Source: Promethearchaeota archaeon (lineage in GTDB: Archaea; Asgardarchaeota; Lokiarchaeia; Sigyniarchaeales; SOKP01). From it: 64,000 bases of DNA. Under the pieces are notes generated by a model. The model was not told the origin of the DNA. It worked only from the letters and a program-made list of their open reading frames with translations, and did not search any database. The stretch is taken from NCBI GenBank assembly GCA_048937405.1, contig JBHLNF010000001.1, positions 560,685 to 624,684 of the forward strand, read 5' to 3'. Shown here piece after piece: positions 1 to 8,401 of the stretch; positions within the stretch are counted from its first letter, which is position 1; every line of letters begins with the position of its first letter. The position numbers were made by a program, and so were the translations under genes.

Positions 1-1460
1 CCCCCTGTAATAGCATCAATTTGAAAATTTAAAAGCACTATCTTACTCATCGGTTTAAAGCATTTAACAATTGCTTTACAGGAGGCATCTACAGGTCCTA
101 CTCCCGTTGCTGATGCTACTTTTTGCATTATATCTCCATTATTTTTGATGTTTAGTCGAACTGTTGATGTAGGTGTAACTGATCCAGTTAAAACAGTTAA
201 CTCCTCAAGCGTTACAAATTGTTCTTCTTTTGGTATTTCACCCATAACATCTTTCACAATAGCTAAGAAATCCTCTTCAGAAACTTCATGCCCCTTATCA
301 CCAAGACTTTTTACATGTTCTCTTATTTTCATAAATTGTTCATCATTGGTCTTAATACCTAAGTCATCAATCTTAGCTTTAAGAGCATGACCACCTGTGT
401 GTTTTCCAAGTTTTATTGATTGCTTGATTATTGCTTCCACGTCGTCAGTACGGTGAATTCCTATTAATTCTGGAGTAATTGGTTCATATGTTCGTGCATG
501 TTGTATCATTGCATGAGCATGGATACCTGCTTCATGAGCAAACGCATTCTGACCTATTAGTGGTTGCAATCGTCCGATCCTAACTTTTCCACCACAATAA
601 CTCTCAATTAATTTGGCTGTGGGAAAAATTTTTGTTGTTTTAATATTCATAGGGATCTGGTATAAAGCATAAAGAGACATACAAGTTTCTTCAAAAGATG
701 CATTTCCTGCTCGTTCACCCAATCCTAAAATAGTTGTTTGAGCTTCTGAAGCACCATTTTCAAACGCAGCGACAGTATTTGCAACAGCAAGGCCAAAATC
801 ATTATGACAATGGGCTGCAATACGAATATTTTTAGGTAAAGCTTCATGATTCTTCCGAATAATATATCCAAAAGCTACTGGAGATATTGTACCTACAGTG
901 TCAGGTATATTTATTCGTGTGGCTCCGCTATCAATAGCAGTTAAATTAGCTTTAATTAAAAAGTCTAAATCTGATCTAGTAGCATCCTCTGCTGAAAATA
1001 AAACTATAGAATAATGTTCTTTAGCATAAGAGACAGTTTCTCTTATTCGTTCTATAACTTCATCTTTGGATAATTGAAGTTTTTCTCTCATATGTAATTC
1101 TGAAGTGGCGCAAAATAAATGTATACTATCCATATCAGCCTCGATAACTTTATCTATATCGGGTTTCGCTGTTCTAGCTAAACCCATCACTTCAGAATCC
1201 AAACCCATTTTTGCAATATCTCTACAAGCATCAAAATCACCTGGAGATGTTATAGGAAAACCCGCTTCTATAATATCAATTCCCAAATCATTAAGAGCTT
1301 GAGCAATAGATAGCTTTTCTTTATGAGTAAAACTTATACCTGGAGTTTGTTCCCCATCACGGAGTGTTGTATCAAAAAAGTATGCTCTCTCAGGAAGGAT
1401 AAGTGATCCTCTAATTTTTTCCATCATGTCGGAAACAGCAATATCGTTTTTATTTACCAT
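1..1460 (-). CDS. leuA: 2-isopropylmalate synthase / citramalate synthase family (DRE-TIM), runs off the window start
   Basis: Manual translation from ATG at 1460: MVNKNDIAVSDMMEKIRGSLILPERAYFFDTTLRDGEQTPG...; contains HCHNDFG, GERAGN, HEAGIH, LGKHTG and the C-terminal GVGPVDA motif. Not in the ORF track because it has no stop in the window. LeuA versus CimA cannot be settled from motifs alone. Confidence 0.88.
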   Translation of the reverse strand, partial: MVNKNDIAVSDMMEKIRGSLILPERAYFFDTTLRDGEQTPGISFTHKEKLSIAQALNDLGIDIIEAGFPITSPGDFDACRDIAKMGLDSEVMGLARTAKPDIDKVIEADMDSIHLFCATSELHMREKLQLSKDEVIERIRETVSYAKEHYSIVLFSAEDATRSDLDFLIKANLTAIDSGATRINIPDTVGTISPVAFGYIIRKNHEALPKNIRIAAHCHNDFGLAVANTVAAFENGASEAQTTILGLGERAGNASFEETCMSLYALYQIPMNIKTTKIFPTAKLIESYCGGKVRIGRLQPLIGQNAFAHEAGIHAHAMIQHARTYEPITPELIGIHRTDDVEAIIKQSIKLGKHTGGHALKAKIDDLGIKTNDEQFMKIREHVKSLGDKGHEVSEEDFLAIVKDVMGEIPKEEQFVTLEELTVLTGSVTPTSTVRLNIKNNGDIMQKVASATGVGPVDASCKAIVKCFKPMSKIVLLNFQIDAITG

Positions 1461-1496
1461 GTTTTTAACCTTTTATAATTTTATTTAAAATACATA

Positions 1497-1544
1497 GCCC
1501 TTATGCTTTCAAGAAGAAAAATTCGCTCTAGAAAGAATTAGGGC
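1497..1544 (-). terminator. Imperfect hairpin between leader ORF and leuA (candidate attenuator)
   Basis: Minus strand GCCCUAAUUCUUUCUAGAG...CUUCUUGAAAGCAUAAGGGC followed by UAUGUAUUUU; begins 4 nt after the leader stop codon. Confidence 0.5.
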
Positions 1545-1547
1545 GCT

Positions 1548-1649
1548 TTATAATAATAAGAGTAATAACAAACTCAATAATTCTAAAGGAAATAAACCTC
1601 TCAAACTTATTTTATTATTAGAAATAAGTAGACTTTGAGTAGCTTTCAT
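1548..1649 (-). CDS. Leucine-rich leader peptide (33 aa)
   Basis: ATG at 1649 to TAA at 1548: MKATQSLLISNNKISLRGLFPLELLSLLLLLLL*; 14 of 33 codons are Leu, the last seven consecutive (TTG TTA TTA CTC TTA TTA TTA); same strand as and 87 nt upstream of leuA. Confidence 0.7.
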   Translation of the reverse strand: MKATQSLLISNNKISLRGLFPLELLSLLLLLLL

Positions 1650-1700
1650 AATTTATAATCCTATTAGAATTTATGATTATTAAAATAGATTGATTATAAC

Positions 1701-1716
1701 CTTATAAATTTTTCTC
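1701..1716 (-). promoter_or_regulatory. BRE/TATA-like promoter upstream of the leader ORF
   Basis: Minus strand GAGAAAAA-TTTATAAG about 50 nt before the leader ATG; AT-rich background limits certainty. Confidence 0.4.
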
Positions 1717-1829
1717 TGAATTAGGTTACAATCATTTTAGAAAAGGTCTGAAACTCTTTTGAATATAGGATTACTATTAAAGAATTGTCAAACCAATTGA
1801 TTTTTACTTGAAAAAGAAAAGATATTTAT

Positions 1830-1995
1830 AATAATTTCTTTTGACCAATACCTATTTTTTCTAATAGTAGAAATTAAAGGTGAATCTGAAAGCCCTACTT
1901 CTTCCAAGAAATGGAGTATATCCTTGAATTTTGTAAAAGTAGTTTGATATTTTCCTTTTTTAAAATAAATTAATCCAATTCTATTATTATATTTG
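1830..1995 (-). pseudogene. Possible TPR-protein C-terminal remnant
   Basis: Startless frame reads YNNRIGLIYFKKGKYQTTFTKFKDILHFLEEVGLSDSP, resembling a TPR consensus (YNNIGxIYxxxGxY). Confidence 0.35.
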
Positions 1996-2058
1996 GATTT
2001 TTTTAATTTTTTGTATTTTTTCTAGGTATAAAAAGAATTATCTTAATCTATAAGTAGG

Positions 2059-2421
2059 TTATCTCACTACTTCAAATAGTTCAAGTAGCACATTATCAGG
2101 AGCACTAGCCATTACATATTTCAAGTTATTAAGACTTTTTATTTCATTACTAAATTGATAACCTATACTTTTCATATGTTCTACAAGAGTTTCTAAATCA
2201 TTGGTCTCAAATCCTAAATGCCAAAATGCTCCACTTCCTTTATCTTTAGGTGCTTGATTATAGATAATTATTTTTGATGCTCCAATTTCAATCATTACAT
2301 TTCGAGTTTCAGCGGATCCTCTATCGAACAAAATTTTAGCTTCAAACATATCTTGATAAAATTTGACACTTTCATCAAGATCAGATGCAAATAAATGGAT
2401 ATGATGAAGTGAGGTTTCCAT
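2059..2421 (-). CDS. VOC family (glyoxalase/bleomycin resistance) protein
   Basis: LHHIHL...SDLDESVKFY, WHLGFET, APDNVLLELFE motifs. Confidence 0.9.
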   Translation of the reverse strand: METSLHHIHLFASDLDESVKFYQDMFEAKILFDRGSAETRNVMIEIGASKIIIYNQAPKDKGSGAFWHLGFETNDLETLVEHMKSIGYQFSNEIKSLNNLKYVMASAPDNVLLELFEVVR

Positions 2422-2498
2422 AAATATTTTCCCTTTGAAATTTTTTTTTATTGTTATAAAATTTAATTATAGATATTTATCTAAAGCAAATATTATTT

Positions 2499-3533
2499 TT
2501 AGAATCTTTTTATTTTCTTAGGATATGCTTCAAACGACGTCCGAGGTTCTACAGAAATCCAATCCAAATTTTCTTCTAAATGTGAAAGAGATCTTAATAA
2601 ATCAAAAGTTAACCAGCGTGTGGCTCTTGGATGTGCTATATAATCCCATAGACCATATTCTCCTTGTTCAGATTTTACAAAGTTGATAAAATCAGAAATC
2701 CTTTCATCATTTTTACTTCCTCCAACTCTCCAACATAAATTTAATAAATGGGCAATGTCAAATTTTGCCATAAATGTAATAATTCCAAGGTTTCTTTCTA
2801 AACCAATTAACCGAGCTATTATAAAACCAAGATTACTTCTTAACTTTGAATCTGTTCCGAGTATTAAATCAAGAGCTCTCTTAGCTTCATCACTTTTACT
2901 ATATTTTGGATGATAAGCAAGACAACTAAGAACAGTTGTAGTATTAGATCGACATCCCCATCTTGAATGGGCAAGACGGCGATATCCCGCAATACCGCCA
3001 TAATTACCTGCAGATATCCCTACAGGCCATGCACCGTCTTCTAAACGTTGTTCCATTAACCAATCAAATGAATTCTTAATTCTTTTATCAGTATAGTATC
3101 CACACATAACTAATCCTAAAAGAGGAATTGCTGTTTGAACAGGCATCATTTGATATCCAATTTCTTCATCAGTAAGTTGTTTCTTGCTTGGCATTGGCCA
3201 AGACCCGTCTTCAAGCTGTTTTGAAAAGAGAAATTCTGCTGCTTTCTGCACCACTGGATGATTTGAATCAAATCCGAAGTAGCCTAATCTCTGTAATGCC
3301 ATTGAAGTTATTTGAAGGTTGTCGCTTGAAGATATTCGATTTACACCAAAAGAATCCCATGCTCCATTAGTTTTTTGGAGCTTGAATAATTCATTAACAA
3401 GTGGATCTGATTCCCTTATCTCTGACAATTCAAGCACTTCATTATCATCCTGAGGTAAGTGTAACAATTCAGTTAAGACCAAAAATCGTAAACAATATGA
3501 TGGATCTGTTAATAAAAGTGGAATCCAGGTCAT
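2499..3533 (-). CDS. Prenyltransferase/squalene-cyclase-repeat (QW repeat) alpha-barrel protein
   Basis: QW-like repeats LQKTNGAW, KQLEDGSW, QRLEDGAW, EQGEYGLW; no DXDD cyclase motif; overlaps upstream gene by ATGA. Confidence 0.75.
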   Translation of the reverse strand: MTWIPLLLTDPSYCLRFLVLTELLHLPQDDNEVLELSEIRESDPLVNELFKLQKTNGAWDSFGVNRISSSDNLQITSMALQRLGYFGFDSNHPVVQKAAEFLFSKQLEDGSWPMPSKKQLTDEEIGYQMMPVQTAIPLLGLVMCGYYTDKRIKNSFDWLMEQRLEDGAWPVGISAGNYGGIAGYRRLAHSRWGCRSNTTTVLSCLAYHPKYSKSDEAKRALDLILGTDSKLRSNLGFIIARLIGLERNLGIITFMAKFDIAHLLNLCWRVGGSKNDERISDFINFVKSEQGEYGLWDYIAHPRATRWLTFDLLRSLSHLEENLDWISVEPRTSFEAYPKKIKRF

Positions 3534-6500
3534 TTTCCTCCCTCTAATACTTCTTTTAAATATGGTGCTGTAGGAGTGTTTAGTTTAGCTACTTCACTAG
3601 GTGGTCCTTGTGCAATTACATAGCCTCCTTCTGGGCCTGCTCCTGGTCCTAACTCTATTAGCCAATCACAAGAAGCCAATATATGGGGATGATGTTCAAT
3701 AACAACTACACTATTGCCATTATCAACTAATAAATGTAGGGTATTAATTAGCTTAGAAACATCTTCTAAGTGTTGACCAATAGTCGGTTCATCTAGAATA
3801 TATTGTGTCTCTTTTTTAGAATTTTTAGATAGTTTTTTTACAATCTTAAGTCTTTGGGCTTCACCACCAGAAAGAGTACGAGCAGGTTGATTTAGTTGTA
3901 AATATTGTAGTCCTACTTTTTTAGCATAATTTAATTTAGTAGAAATAGATTCATAATCTCCAAATAATTCATATGCTTCCTCAATAGTTAAATTATTAAT
4001 ATCAGGCAAGGAAATTCCTTTAAAATGAACTTGCCATGCTTCAATTTGATACCCCGATCCATTACAAGTTTCACAAGTCTCAATAATATTAGGAAGAAAT
4101 TTCATATCTATTTTGATATAACCTCCCCCTTGACAAACAGAACATCTCTTTTTTAGTTTTTTTTCATCTAAAGCTAAAATTTTTGCATCTTCAGTCTCAG
4201 AAAATATTTTTATTATTGGAGATTCTAATCCTAAAAATTTAAGAGGACTTCCGATTTTAGATTTTGTTTGATCGATTAATATTGTCTGAGGTAAGTTACC
4301 TTCAATCTTCTCATACTCTCCCGGGTCAATAGGTTCTCGAGATACTGATGTTGTATGTTTAATAGGTACCAAGGCTCTTCCCAACGTGTCAATTATTAGA
4401 GTACTTTTTCCTGAACCAGAAACCCCACATACTCCTACTAATAATTTATGAGGAATCTCAATTAAATCCCCCTTTAAATTGTATTCTTTTGCTCCATAGA
4501 TCTTTAACCATTTTTTAGGTTCTCGGTGTTTTTTAGATACTTCAAATTTCTTTTTTCCACTCATCCAATCTCCCGTAATAGTTTTTGCTTTTATTATATC
4601 TTCTATAGTTCCTTCTGCAACAATTTCCCCCCCATTTACTCCCGCTCCAGGGCCCATATCAATTATATAATCCGCATTATTAATAATTAAAGGATCATGT
4701 TCAATAACTATGACTGTATTTCCGTTGTCCCTTAGTGCTTTTAATACATCTAATAAATTTTCAATTTCTGGAGGAGATAAACCTCTACTAGGCTCATCAA
4801 GTAAAATTATTAAAGATGTCAAATCACTACCCAATAATCCAGCTAGTCGCACTCTTTGAGCTTCTCCAGCAGATAAACTTTCAGCAACACGATTTAGAGT
4901 AATATAGCCTAATCCAATTTTAAGTAAAAAATCCAAACGTGTTAAAATGATCTTATAACTGTTTTTTACAAGATCAGGAATATAATCTTCAATCTTTACA
5001 TCTTTTAATATTCCATATAATTTGTTCAAAGAAATGTTACACATCTGAGGTATATTATAACCTTCTAATGAAATTGCTAAGTATTGAGGACGTAATTTTA
5101 ATCCATTACATTCATCACAAGTTTTTTTATCTGTATATGTACCTCCAACATCCCAATCTCTTAACCATTGTCCATAAAAACCTTGATACTGAATTAATTT
5201 CCTAGAGATTTGACCTTTCTTATTTTCAAATTCAACATCTAAAACTTCTTTATCTCCAAATAAAAATGCATCTTTTGCTTCTTTTGACATTTCAATCCAG
5301 GGTTTTGAAAAAGGATCAAAACCATAACGAGTTGCTAAAGCTTGGACTATATAATATCCACCATTATATGGTTTACATAGATAACCTTTCGGAAAAAAAC
5401 CTGGAGAGTACATGGCACCGTTACATAATGGTTTCTCGGGGTGAATTATTAATTTATTAGGATTAGGAACTTGAAATGAACCAACACCATGGCATTTGAG
5501 GCAAGCTGCCGAATAATTTGTAGAAATAAAATGTCGTGGTTTAGCAAGAGGTAATGAGATATTACACTTTTTACAATACCATTTTTCCTTTCTTTCCATT
5601 TTATGATTACATTTAGGACATAATATTTCTCCCATATATGAAAATATATTCGCTAAATGGAGTGTTAAACCTGTAACCCTTCCTATAGTATTTCGAAGAT
5701 TCAAAAACCAACCATGGATAATCTTTTCTGGTATTATTGATGCTGTTATCCCTAGACCTTGAATCTTTTCTACTAACGCTTCGGTACTTTCTTTAGTACT
5801 TTGTCTTTCATACATTGATAAGGTTTCTAAATATCTACGTCTTGCTTCCATCTCAAGTGTATCCATTATTAGGCTGGATTTCCCTGATCCTGAAACACCT
5901 GTGACTACAGTAAATTTCTTTTTTGGGATTTTGACATCTACATTCTTAAGATTATGAGCATGAGCGTTTTGAATGATAATGTATTCTGAACTTTTTCTTA
6001 CTTTCTTTTTTTTTTGGATTAATGGCATAACACGCTCTTCCATTTTTAAGGATTGAGCAGTAAGAGATTCTTCAGTTTCCATAAACTTATCTAAAGGACC
6101 TTGATACATAACTTTACCACCATTTGGTCCTGAACCCTGACCAAGGTCTATGACCCAATCAGCAGCCCTAATTATATCAATATTGTGTTCTACGATCACA
6201 ATTGTTGCTCCATTGTGGAGTAATCTATCTAAAATTGTTAATAATCCCGCTAAATCTTGAGAGTGTAATCCTGTTGAAGGTTCATCAAGAATTATTAAAT
6301 GATCTTTTAAATTTTTTTTTCCAAGGTATTTTGATAATTTAATTCGCTGAGCTTCACCCCCAGATAATGTTGGAGAAGGTTGACCTAAGGAGAGATATCC
6401 TAAACCTATATCATTAAGAGCTTTTAACATTTGTCTTACTGATTTAAAATCTCCAACAGTCAATCTTTTTTCTTTATCAAAAATCTTTACAACTTCTGAA

Positions 6501-8401
6501 ATTGGTAGATCATAGAATTCTGCTATAGAATACTCCTTATCCTCAAACTGAACTTTTTCCTCAAGTATCTCTTCAGAAAATCTCTGCCCATTACAGTCTG
6601 GACATGTGATCCAATTAGAGGGTAAATATCTCATCTTAATTTCAAGGGAACCCATCCCGTTACATGTTAGACATTGTCCTTCTGGAGTATTGAATGAAAA
6701 GAACGTAGCTTTAAATTTAGTAGCTTTGGCAAATAGCTTTCTAATAATATCAGCAATTTTAGTGTAAGTAGCTGGATTTGATCTTGGATTTTTCCCTATA
6801 GGTCCTTGATCTACCATGATAGGTCTCAATTTTGTTCCGGTAATGTTATTACAACCTATTGGTTCTTTTTTTTTTAATGAACTAAACAAAACATCTTCTA
6901 CCAATGTACTTTTTCCAGAACCAGATACACCTGTTATAACCGTTAGTCGGTTTAAGGGAATTTTAACATTAATATTTTTCAAATTATGCTTATAAGCTTT
7001 CTCAATTGTTAGAAAGAGTTGAGGTTTAGCTCTATGCTGGGGAATTATTACTCGTTCTCTCAAGCTAAAAAACTTTCCAGTAGGTGTATCTGATTTCCAT
7101 AACTCTGCAGGAGTCCCAGTAAATATAATCTCACCCCCTTCTCTTCCAGCTCCCGGACCAATATCAATAACATTGTCTGCATACATGGCAGCTTGCCGAT
7201 CGTGTTCAATATAAATTATTGGACCAGCAAGATTCTGAAGTATTGGCAGTAATCGCGCAACGTCAGATGGATGTTGACCAATCGTTGGTTCATCAAGGAT
7301 ATGAGTAATATCTTCTAATTCACTTAATAAGGCAATAGCTAGTCGAACTCTTTGAGATTCTCCCCTAGATAATGTTGGTGAAACACGGTCTAATTCTAAA
7401 TAATCTAATCCTACAGAATTTAATGAAAATAACCGTCTTTTTATTTCTTGTAATAACCTAACCGTAATCGAAAGTTCTTCTTTATAGAAATAAGCTACTA
7501 GTTCTCCAACTGATTTTGTTAAAATCTCGGGAAATAACATCCCCTCCCAAGTAACATTAGATGCAAGAGGGTGATATCCTGTTTCATTACATTGCTTGCA
7601 CCCTTTTCCTTTACAATAAGGACAATTTTTCTTAAAATGCATTGGCTCAAGATCTCCGAACCAAGTACCACATTCCACACATGCAGGCACTCGAGAAATA
7701 AGAAAATTAGATGTTTTTCCTTTAATTATTAATGAATTTGACCCTAATGAAGAGATAATTTTAACTATGTCTCGGATCTCATTAATATTAGTGCTTGTTG
7801 TTACTTGGCCAATTTGAATCTGAATATCATGAGGTTCTTTTGGATTTAATTTTGAAATTATGGATTGTCCATCCACCAAGATAGTTTCAGGACTGAATTT
7901 CTTCTTCAAAAGGTTAATTAAGGTTTGATGACTCCCTTTTAATTTTCTTACTAAAAGAGCTGATATTGTAACTGGCTCGATATGTCTTAATCCTTCAATT
8001 TTCGCGATTATTTCATCTTCTCTTAAAATGGATAATTTAGAACCGCAAACATGACATGTTCTATCACCAAATCTAGCATAAAGAATTTTTAATAAAGGTA
8101 TAAGACCTATCGCAGATGCCAAAATAGAATTAGGGTTTCGGTTAAGTACATTTTGACTAAGCGCTATTGTAGGTCCTAAACCAGTGATTGACCTTACTTT
8201 TGCAGGATTTAGTTTCATCTCTTCTTTACTAACTGAAAATGCTTCTAAAAATCTACGTCTAGCTTCTTTATATAATGTATCGAATATTAGTGAGGTTTTT
8301 CCCGATCCAGAAACCCCTGTTACCACAGTAAGTCCGTCCTTGATGGTAACATCAATATCTTTTAGGTTGTTTTCTCTTGCACCTTGAATTTTTATTTCCA
8401 T
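3530..8401 (-). CDS. Double-length UvrA-family ABC ATPase (two fused UvrA units, four NBDs)
   Basis: Four GVSGSGK[ST] Walker A motifs, four signature motifs (LSRGE, LSGGE, LSAGE, LSGGE), four LDEP Walker B motifs, many CxxC zinc modules. Confidence 0.92.
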   Translation of the reverse strand: MEIKIQGARENNLKDIDVTIKDGLTVVTGVSGSGKTSLIFDTLYKEARRRFLEAFSVSKEEMKLNPAKVRSITGLGPTIALSQNVLNRNPNSILASAIGLIPLLKILYARFGDRTCHVCGSKLSILREDEIIAKIEGLRHIEPVTISALLVRKLKGSHQTLINLLKKKFSPETILVDGQSIISKLNPKEPHDIQIQIGQVTTSTNINEIRDIVKIISSLGSNSLIIKGKTSNFLISRVPACVECGTWFGDLEPMHFKKNCPYCKGKGCKQCNETGYHPLASNVTWEGMLFPEILTKSVGELVAYFYKEELSITVRLLQEIKRRLFSLNSVGLDYLELDRVSPTLSRGESQRVRLAIALLSELEDITHILDEPTIGQHPSDVARLLPILQNLAGPIIYIEHDRQAAMYADNVIDIGPGAGREGGEIIFTGTPAELWKSDTPTGKFFSLRERVIIPQHRAKPQLFLTIEKAYKHNLKNINVKIPLNRLTVITGVSGSGKSTLVEDVLFSSLKKKEPIGCNNITGTKLRPIMVDQGPIGKNPRSNPATYTKIADIIRKLFAKATKFKATFFSFNTPEGQCLTCNGMGSLEIKMRYLPSNWITCPDCNGQRFSEEILEEKVQFEDKEYSIAEFYDLPISEVVKIFDKEKRLTVGDFKSVRQMLKALNDIGLGYLSLGQPSPTLSGGEAQRIKLSKYLGKKNLKDHLIILDEPSTGLHSQDLAGLLTILDRLLHNGATIVIVEHNIDIIRAADWVIDLGQGSGPNGGKVMYQGPLDKFMETEESLTAQSLKMEERVMPLIQKKKKVRKSSEYIIIQNAHAHNLKNVDVKIPKKKFTVVTGVSGSGKSSLIMDTLEMEARRRYLETLSMYERQSTKESTEALVEKIQGLGITASIIPEKIIHGWFLNLRNTIGRVTGLTLHLANIFSYMGEILCPKCNHKMERKEKWYCKKCNISLPLAKPRHFISTNYSAACLKCHGVGSFQVPNPNKLIIHPEKPLCNGAMYSPGFFPKGYLCKPYNGGYYIVQALATRYGFDPFSKPWIEMSKEAKDAFLFGDKEVLDVEFENKKGQISRKLIQYQGFYGQWLRDWDVGGTYTDKKTCDECNGLKLRPQYLAISLEGYNIPQMCNISLNKLYGILKDVKIEDYIPDLVKNSYKIILTRLDFLLKIGLGYITLNRVAESLSAGEAQRVRLAGLLGSDLTSLIILLDEPSRGLSPPEIENLLDVLKALRDNGNTVIVIEHDPLIINNADYIIDMGPGAGVNGGEIVAEGTIEDIIKAKTITGDWMSGKKKFEVSKKHREPKKWLKIYGAKEYNLKGDLIEIPHKLLVGVCGVSGSGKSTLIIDTLGRALVPIKHTTSVSREPIDPGEYEKIEGNLPQTILIDQTKSKIGSPLKFLGLESPIIKIFSETEDAKILALDEKKLKKRCSVCQGGGYIKIDMKFLPNIIETCETCNGSGYQIEAWQVHFKGISLPDINNLTIEEAYELFGDYESISTKLNYAKKVGLQYLQLNQPARTLSGGEAQRLKIVKKLSKNSKKETQYILDEPTIGQHLEDVSKLINTLHLLVDNGNSVVVIEHHPHILASCDWLIELGPGAGPEGGYVIAQGPPSEVAKLNTPTAPYLKEVLEGGK

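Follow-up and report, generated by a model that had tools for sequence, protein, structure and literature searches.

The DNA analysed here is a 64,000-nucleotide stretch of the genome assembly GCA_048937405.1 of a Promethearchaeota archaeon (contig JBHLNF010000001.1, forward-strand positions 560,685 to 624,684), referred to below as the window. Near its start, the minus strand carries leuA, the gene for 2-isopropylmalate synthase, and, 87 nt upstream of leuA, a short upstream open reading frame (uORF) that finishes with several consecutive leucine codons and is followed directly by a hairpin. This leader region, a candidate leader-peptide attenuator, is our subject. A preliminary description made from the sequence alone had listed a TATA-like box, a 33-codon open reading frame (ORF) with 14 Leu codons and a seven-Leu tail, a hairpin, a U-rich tract, and the start of leuA, and all of these are present, on the minus strand. 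Together with two longer-range structures, here called P1 and P2, they are arranged as follows:

1702..1716, minus strand: element resembling a B recognition element (BRE) and TATA box, read from the sequence, with TTTATAA at 1708..1702 and a purine-rich stretch before it.

1683..1650, minus strand: 5' strand of helix P1, lying in the 5' untranslated region (UTR) of the uORF and including a Shine-Dalgarno (SD)-like GGAT at 1661..1658.

1649..1548, minus strand: leader ORF (the uORF), starting with ATG, 33 codons, 14 of them Leu, stop codon TAA at 1550..1548.

1600..1565, minus strand: 3' strand of P1, within the uORF, ending about at the terminal Leu run.

1571..1551, minus strand: terminal run of seven Leu, the proposed sensing codons, written with TTG, TTA, and CTC.

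1545..1524 and 1523..1511, minus strand: short GC-closed hairpin and the U-rich tract after it, beginning 3 nt past the stop; an alternative fold whose 5' arm is common to P2.

1544..1497, minus strand: long hairpin P2, with closing stem GCCCU/AGGGC, beginning 4 nt after the stop; the minimum-free-energy fold.

1496..1461, minus strand: A-rich linker of 36 nt, with an SD-like AGGT at 1471..1468 before the leuA ATG.

3..1460, minus strand: leuA, start ATG at 1460, continuing past the start of the window; full length 538 aa.

The preliminary description had cautioned that the enzyme could instead be the citramalate synthase CimA, and this doubt is now removed. The full-length protein scores 562.9 bits on NF002085 (cut-off 517), which places it in the 2-isopropylmalate synthase subfamily, and it combines an HMGL-like domain (PF00682) with the allosteric C-terminal LeuA_dimer domain (PF08502), whereas it reaches only 218.7 bits on the citramalate synthase model, below the cut-off of 450. 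CimA is a separate LeuA paralogue encoded on another contig, C20 (TIGR00977, 677 bits). The genes that follow leuA on the same strand are leuC (TIGR02083, 652 bits vs. 610.65), leuD, and leuB, giving the order leuA-leuC-leuD-leuB. The host genome comprises 4.47 Mb at 28.9% GC. No small-subunit rRNA was found in the assembly, and the anti-SD sequence was therefore assumed from other archaea; aragorn, run over the whole genome, returned only 7 tRNAs, with no tRNA-Leu among them.

Leu runs of this length are rare in the host genome, where a search of all six frames over 4.47 Mb yielded just 23 runs of at least seven Leu, most of them out of frame within genes. In an unbiased genome scan, 2747 intergenic ATG-started ORFs (8–70 codons, at most 250 nt from a long ORF) were scored by how strongly any one amino acid is enriched among the last 14 residues of each; of all 2747, the leuA leader took the top rank (p-value 6 × 10−7). 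The TTTATAA box lies 53–59 nt upstream of the uORF ATG, a position that recurs among relatives, with TTT[AT]AA words concentrated at −58 to −55 from the uORF ATG in 24 of 51 leaders and an SD-like GG at −12 to −9.

These relatives were gathered through a search of public genomes, which provided 51 Promethearchaeota leuA loci with a LeuA identity of 64–95%; the leader statistics given here were computed over 51 distinct leaders. The preliminary description had named conservation of a poly-Leu uORF in relatives as its decisive test, and an ATG-started uORF with a terminal Leu run is indeed found, with synonymous variation, at 47/51 orthologous loci. Among the remaining four, two are cut by a contig end about 130 nt upstream and one contains an N gap, while the fourth is listed as two pieces, the second of which lacks a gene start and was left unscanned. 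The distance from the uORF stop to the leuA ATG is 86–102 nt, with a single outlier at 125 nt, and falls in all three phases, for which reason stop read-through or frameshifting into leuA was rejected.

Selection acts on the tail of the uORF, with the peptide outside the Leu tail varying freely. Over the leaders, the last four positions are Leu in 86%, 94%, 98%, and 94% of cases, and among the last seven residues Leu reaches 82%, with Asn, Asp, His, and Ser as substitutes; Ile accounts for only 0.6% of the last seven residues, while Val, Phe, and Met are missing. Each of the six Leu codons occurs in the tails, and the codons have changed synonymously over about 50 species. In the host genome, small ORFs contain Ile and Phe more often than any other residue, so that polar substitutes combined with an avoidance of these abundant residues indicate selection for Leu codons rather than for a hydrophobic peptide. 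A chance origin, in which TTA repeats in an AT-rich spacer happened to form an ORF, would suit a 28.9% GC genome in which TTA is the commonest Leu codon (51% in long ORFs). It is, however, refuted by the synonymous conservation just described, as well as by the scarcity of comparable runs and the first rank of this leader genome-wide, and we give it practically no credence.

Outside this set, and with the filters used, no Leu leader was found at leuA of two higher-GC Asgard families, Hadarchaeota, or Methanobrevibacter and some methanogens. A Leu-rich ORF upstream of a Methanophagales leuA (L097) was rejected as a chance occurrence, being out of frame in the end of the upstream gene and lacking a start. 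In another family of the same order (L009/L074), a 72-codon ORF with 21 Leu lies 359–578 nt upstream of leuA; an N run lies between, so the architecture there is unreadable.

The second conserved element is the hairpin P2, which is the minimum-free-energy fold of the 62 nt past the stop in 51/51 leaders, with a mean z of −3.5 against dinucleotide shuffles and z < −2 in 40/51. Counted from the stop, its first nucleotide lies at a median of +3 nt (range −2 to +7) and its last at about +56, leaving 32–44 nt (median 36) to the leuA ATG in 50/51 leaders. Because RNAalifold on MAFFT alignments of 51 and 24 leaders returned no structure, with the hairpin arms misaligned, and column-vote and Nussinov consensus proved unreliable, we relied instead on per-sequence folds, a covariance model, and a comparison of cognate and permuted pairs. 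The covariance model was seeded on 12 close relatives and used to align 39 distinct sense-strand sequences. Canonical pairs fill 85.5% of cells in this alignment vs. 71.6% when shuffled, a value reached in 0 of 500 shuffles, and double-sided changes occupy 103 cells vs. 32 ± 6 in shuffles, counts that have to be read in the light of an alignment fitted to the structure and of sequences that are related. The alignment-free test, in which the duplex energy of fixed windows in cognate species pairs is set against that in permuted ones, put the P2 arms at z = −12.9.

In 44/51 leaders the sense fold is more stable than the antisense fold, and 12% of P2 pairs are G-U; this strand bias and these pairs identify P2 as an RNA structure on the leuA strand. 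Its arms also have a fixed polarity beyond what pairing demands: purines account for a fraction of 0.23 of the 5' arm and of 0.75 of the 3' arm, the 3' arm being the richer in 47/51 leaders, and an SD-like tetramer is found in 40/51 3' arms vs. 1/51 5' arms. Downstream of P2, the best-conserved feature of the linker is a GG at −11/−10 from the leuA ATG, and a TATA-like word (TTTAAAA-like) sits at −36 to −30, just after the hairpin. Genome-wide, TATA-like words peak weakly at −35 to −26 from ATGs and SD-like GG at −15 to −6, and, as far as such motifs go, a leadered SD-dependent leuA mRNA and a transcription start inside the linker are both possible.

Upstream of P2, the helix P1 pairs the 5' UTR of the uORF with the interior of the uORF. 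In the host genome this duplex has a ΔG of −18.2 and a z of −3.3 (mean z −2.2 over the 51 leaders), and windows covering the 5' UTR plus the first 20 uORF nt, on one side, and uORF nt ~62–21 before the stop, on the other, gave z = −4.4 to −4.8 in the comparison of cognate and permuted pairs. A median of 21 nt separates the end of the P1 3' strand from the last nucleotide of the stop codon. The positions of P1 and P2 thus leave the Leu run and stop in a stretch of ~23 nt between the two structures, and a ribosome located there has to unpair P1 at its end, P2 at its start, or both. In models of the full-length RNA, the ribosome-binding site (RBS) of the uORF is less accessible than that of leuA (0.43 vs. 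0.53 unpaired, p-value 0.006).

Leaders of the same design precede other biosynthetic genes of the host genome, as the preliminary description had suggested looking for. Inspection of the genes downstream of the 15 top-ranking small-ORF candidates brought out, besides leuA, one Ile, two Trp, and one His case, the other candidates among the 15 not being cognate. The citramalate synthase gene cimA is preceded at 105 nt by a 23-codon ORF with 12 Ile (contig C20:77276-77348, plus strand; L103:151-222), the stop of which leads into a long hairpin with a U-rich internal loop. A TrpB-like gene, trpB2, has an ORF with four Trp in a W-x-W-x-W-x-W pattern, and trpD a 17-codon ORF with three Trp; at both Trp loci (L101, contig C7:22178-23943, minus strand, and L110, contig C11:1149-2603, minus strand) a GC-rich hairpin overlaps the stop. 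Finally, a 54-codon ORF with a tail containing four His, arranged as two His pairs, lies 81 nt upstream of hisIE (L113, contig C7:728389-729693, plus strand), with a long hairpin directly after its stop. A stable hairpin is therefore found at or just past the stop in each Ile, Trp, and His leader, and not all of these leaders have a pyrimidine-rich 5' arm. That the paralogues LeuA and CimA each carry a putative leader for their own end product is the strongest internal control in this data set.

Three further ORFs of the host genome are recorded here as separate observations. One of 19 codons, five of them Trp and three Cys, precedes by 179 nt the gene for a 308-aa protein without an NCBIfam match (L102, contig C28:342971-344286, minus strand), and may be a Trp leader on an uncharacterised gene or a product of chance. 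A 28-codon ORF rich in Ile, Leu, and Val, 104 nt before genes for the gamma, delta, and alpha subunits of a ferredoxin oxidoreductase of the pyruvate/2-ketoisovalerate type (L112/L117, contig C25:146124-147040, minus strand), might act as a branched-chain leader or encode a small membrane peptide. A 33-codon ORF with 17 Met and 5 Thr, located 153 nt before the CTP synthase gene pyrG (L116:172-273, contig C2:16421-16523, plus strand), is non-cognate and probably represents low-complexity, ATG-rich DNA.

With these comparisons in hand, one can ask whether the leuA uORF is a sensor at all. It might instead encode a small hydrophobic peptide with its own function, Leu-rich tails being potentially membrane-active, or P2 might be a DNA palindrome bound by a transcription factor near an internal leuA promoter, since the TATA-like word just past P2 lies at the ATG distance of the genome-wide peak. 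We regard both versions as very improbable. The tail accepts Asn, Asp, His, and Ser and not Ile, Val, Phe, or Met, and the remaining peptide is unconserved. The P2 arms change freely yet stay complementary, and this, with the G-U pairs and the more stable sense strand, is the mark of an RNA rather than of a protein-binding site. Leaders enriched in the operon's own amino acid are, moreover, present on four other operons of the host genome.

Taken together, these results suggest that the leuACDB operon of this Asgard archaeon is controlled by a cis-acting, ribosome-read leucine gauge, i.e. a leader-peptide attenuator, a reading to which, from sequence comparison, we assign a probability of roughly 0.7. 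A single conserved hairpin whose 5' arm could be reached by a ribosome at the last Leu codons has the geometry of a direct-occlusion attenuator. In the mechanism we propose, the transcript would begin ~30 nt before the uORF and the 33-codon leader would be translated; when charged tRNA-Leu is scarce, the ribosome would dwell on the last Leu codons, and its footprint, of a size assumed from other organisms, would cover the stop and the pyrimidine-rich 5' arm of P2, blocking the hairpin while the polymerase enters leuA. When Leu is plentiful, the ribosome would complete the leader and depart, P2 would form, and expression of the operon would fall. The nascent transcript would most likely be where the decision falls, through premature termination or cleavage, since P1, once transcribed, would close the leader's own RBS. 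Leader translation, stalling, the level of action, and the sign of the P2 effect are elements that we infer, the last from regulatory logic.

Several observations weigh against this gauge, most of them concerning its output. The preliminary description had taken the short hairpin and the U-rich tract as a terminator, which comparison does not bear out: a run of at least five T is found after P2 in only 4/51 leaders and inside P2 in 15/51, leaving no conserved oligo-T, and the conserved element is the longer hairpin P2. Host gene ends are rich in oligo-T (T≥7 in 17% vs. 7% in the control) and show no enrichment in hairpins, with a mean z of −0.17 equal to that of upstream regions; the short hairpin with its U5 is thus a local feature, which from the sequences compared is confined to the host genome and its nearest relatives. 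Archaeal polymerases, moreover, are not known to obey hairpin terminators. A bacterial-type hairpin-plus-U terminator was therefore rejected as the conserved mechanism, so that, of the earlier proposal that sensing of leucyl-tRNA controls leuA by termination or by translational coupling, the sensing part retains strong comparative support and the proposed terminator does not.

Nor do the 51 leaders support mutually exclusive terminator and antiterminator helices of the trp type. Folded alone, the 5' half of P2 has a mean z of −0.96, slightly above chance, and the 3' half a z of −0.15; in a four-segment scheme of alternative pairing, the 1:2 hairpin is accordingly weakly supported and the 3:4 hairpin is without support, and this scheme was set aside. 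Other co-varying pairs of windows are marginal (z −2.6 to −3.2, with the P2 5' arm and apex at z −2.7), and none involves the leuA RBS. On the side of the sensor, TTA, a common codon, makes up 72% of tail Leu codons, above its genome-wide share in long ORFs, and leuA may, judging from the TATA-like word in the linker, also have its own promoter there, downstream of the proposed gauge.

The same gauge could operate with P2 in the opposite, protective role, as in a factor-dependent system like E. coli tna: the U/C-rich 5' arm would be an entry site for FttA/aCPSF1, masked first by the stalled ribosome and later by P2, so that the hairpin would safeguard read-through instead of ending it. The fixed polarity of the arms and the lack of an oligo-T terminator after P2 would both fit, as would the termination activity reported for aCPSF1/FttA in two studies, where aCPSF1 is described as acting jointly with terminator U-tracts (PMC8716108) and FttA as a factor-dependent terminator with Spt4/5 (PMC11616081). 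In such a role, however, P2 would come into play only once the decision had been made, and no other element of the leader is conserved as strongly (the z of −12.9 noted above); the sister leaders, too, do not all have pyrimidine-rich 5' arms. We consider this arrangement unlikely, although it deserves some weight.

The leucine gauge might also act after transcription, on translation or mRNA stability, by opening the leuA RBS, by offering a landing site in the exposed SD-like 3' arm of P2, or by shielding the mRNA from 5' decay. This version would account for the constant spacing of P2 to the leuA ATG and for the SD-like tetramers concentrated in the 3' arms, and bacterial precedents exist in mycobacterial poly-Cys ORFs (10.1101/834739) and in the LEU element of actinobacteria (PMC1262725), with ermC as a further model. 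When a stalled ribosome is imposed, the modelled accessibility of the leuA RBS increases slightly, from 0.52 to 0.58 (up in 21 leaders, down in 7). The leuA RBS is nevertheless about half unpaired without any ribosome, and in the host genome its modelled accessibility is unchanged by stalling. Windows containing the leuA RBS co-vary with no other window in the comparison of cognate and permuted pairs over the 51 leaders, and sequestration of this RBS was rejected on account of that result and of the small modelled effect. A stem between the Leu run and the SD was likewise rejected, since cognate duplexes (−5.7 kcal/mol) are no better than mismatched (−6.0 kcal/mol) or shuffled ones (−6.1 kcal/mol; permutation p-value 0.93). 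The partial closure of the uORF RBS by P1, finally, is easier to reconcile with one co-transcriptional round than with steady-state sensing. We consider control at this later level improbable.

Extending the co-transcriptional gauge proposed for leuA to its sister leaders, the Leu, Ile, Trp, and His leaders might each gauge a charged tRNA and set their own operon through the hairpin against the end of the ORF, acting co-transcriptionally on a eukaryote-like polymerase, perhaps through FttA/aCPSF1, and thereby constitute a ribosome-directed regulon. This extension is tentative, and we rate its chances at a little under even.

Leader-peptide attenuation is a textbook outcome of coupled transcription and translation in bacteria, and amino-acid control in archaea has, as far as is known, been ascribed to DNA-binding regulators. 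The classical enterobacterial attenuators, leuL (before leuABCD), hisL, pheL, and trpL, rely on a short ORF packed with codons for the end product, the leucine case being represented in Rfam by Leu_leader (RF00512). The archaeal leader resembles them in its short cognate-codon ORF before the operon, in helices within reach of a stalled ribosome, and in the pairing of the leader RBS with a later segment. It differs from them in having neither a conserved U-tract nor supported alternative helices, and in placing the Leu run last in the ORF, immediately next to the hairpin. An Rfam cmscan search of window positions 1..5000, with E-values up to 1, returned no leader or riboswitch family, including RF00512, and gave only a weak unrelated match to Srn266 (E-value 0.81).

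A closer geometric likeness is offered by attenuators of the direct-occlusion type, such as pyrBI, which senses UTP via polymerase pausing, and tnaC, which together with Rho senses free tryptophan via the nascent peptide. In these, as in the archaeal leader, one hairpin or factor site by the end of the leader ORF is covered by the ribosome and there is no antiterminator, whereas the proposed archaeal gauge would read tRNA charging through a codon run.

Two further bacterial systems share other aspects of the design. The actinobacterial LEU element (PMC1262725) also lies before leuA and consists of a uORF with a Leu run, then a compact RNA structure before the leuA SD; the defining base stem that its Leu run forms with the SD was not detected in the archaeal leaders, as described above. 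Mutations of the Leu codons left regulation by the LEU element unaffected, and a protein binder was favoured there (PMC1262725). In the mycobacterial 'Cys ribulon', stalled ribosomes block a duplex that sequesters a downstream RBS (10.1101/834739). Several operons per genome carry cognate short ORFs in both cases, poly-Cys in mycobacteria and Leu, Ile, Trp, and His here; the mycobacterial ORFs are leaderless, whereas the archaeal uORF has a 5' leader with an SD-like motif and no conserved RBS duplex.

Our full-text literature searches found no precedent for a leader-peptide attenuator in archaea, although absence there is not proof. If the proposed gauge is correct, it would be the first case of attenuation coupled to transcription and translation in archaea, with an output unlike the bacterial hairpin-plus-U terminator. 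Whether the archaeal ribosome serves as an amino-acid sensor becomes a directly testable question, because the leader is conserved, cognate, and found beside sister leaders of the same genome. In this lineage, the one closest to eukaryotes, the action of P2 could reveal a new connection of translation with termination, RNA processing, or initiation in archaea. For annotators, the arrangement provides a rule for spotting unannotated regulatory small ORFs in archaeal genomes.

The surroundings of the leu operon hold several other genes of note. Past the end of the operon, by ~1 kb (4 kb from the operon per another count), lies the gene for an actin-family protein (PF00022, 378 bits; L031:10874-11875, contig C7:555873-556874, minus strand), a neighbour consistent with the Asgard origin of the genome. 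On the other side, between the promoter region of the leader and a UvrA-like gene, are two minus-strand genes: one for a small protein of the VOC/glyoxalase family (window 2059-2421) and, next to it, one for a 344-aa protein that weakly matches the C-terminal repeats of squalene/oxidosqualene cyclases (window 2499-3533). The UvrA-like protein itself (window 3530-8401, minus strand) has 1623 aa, almost double the usual length; it is matched by TIGR00630 in five stretches and also by the long model PRK00635 ('excinuclease ABC subunit A'), and appears to be an internally duplicated UvrA.

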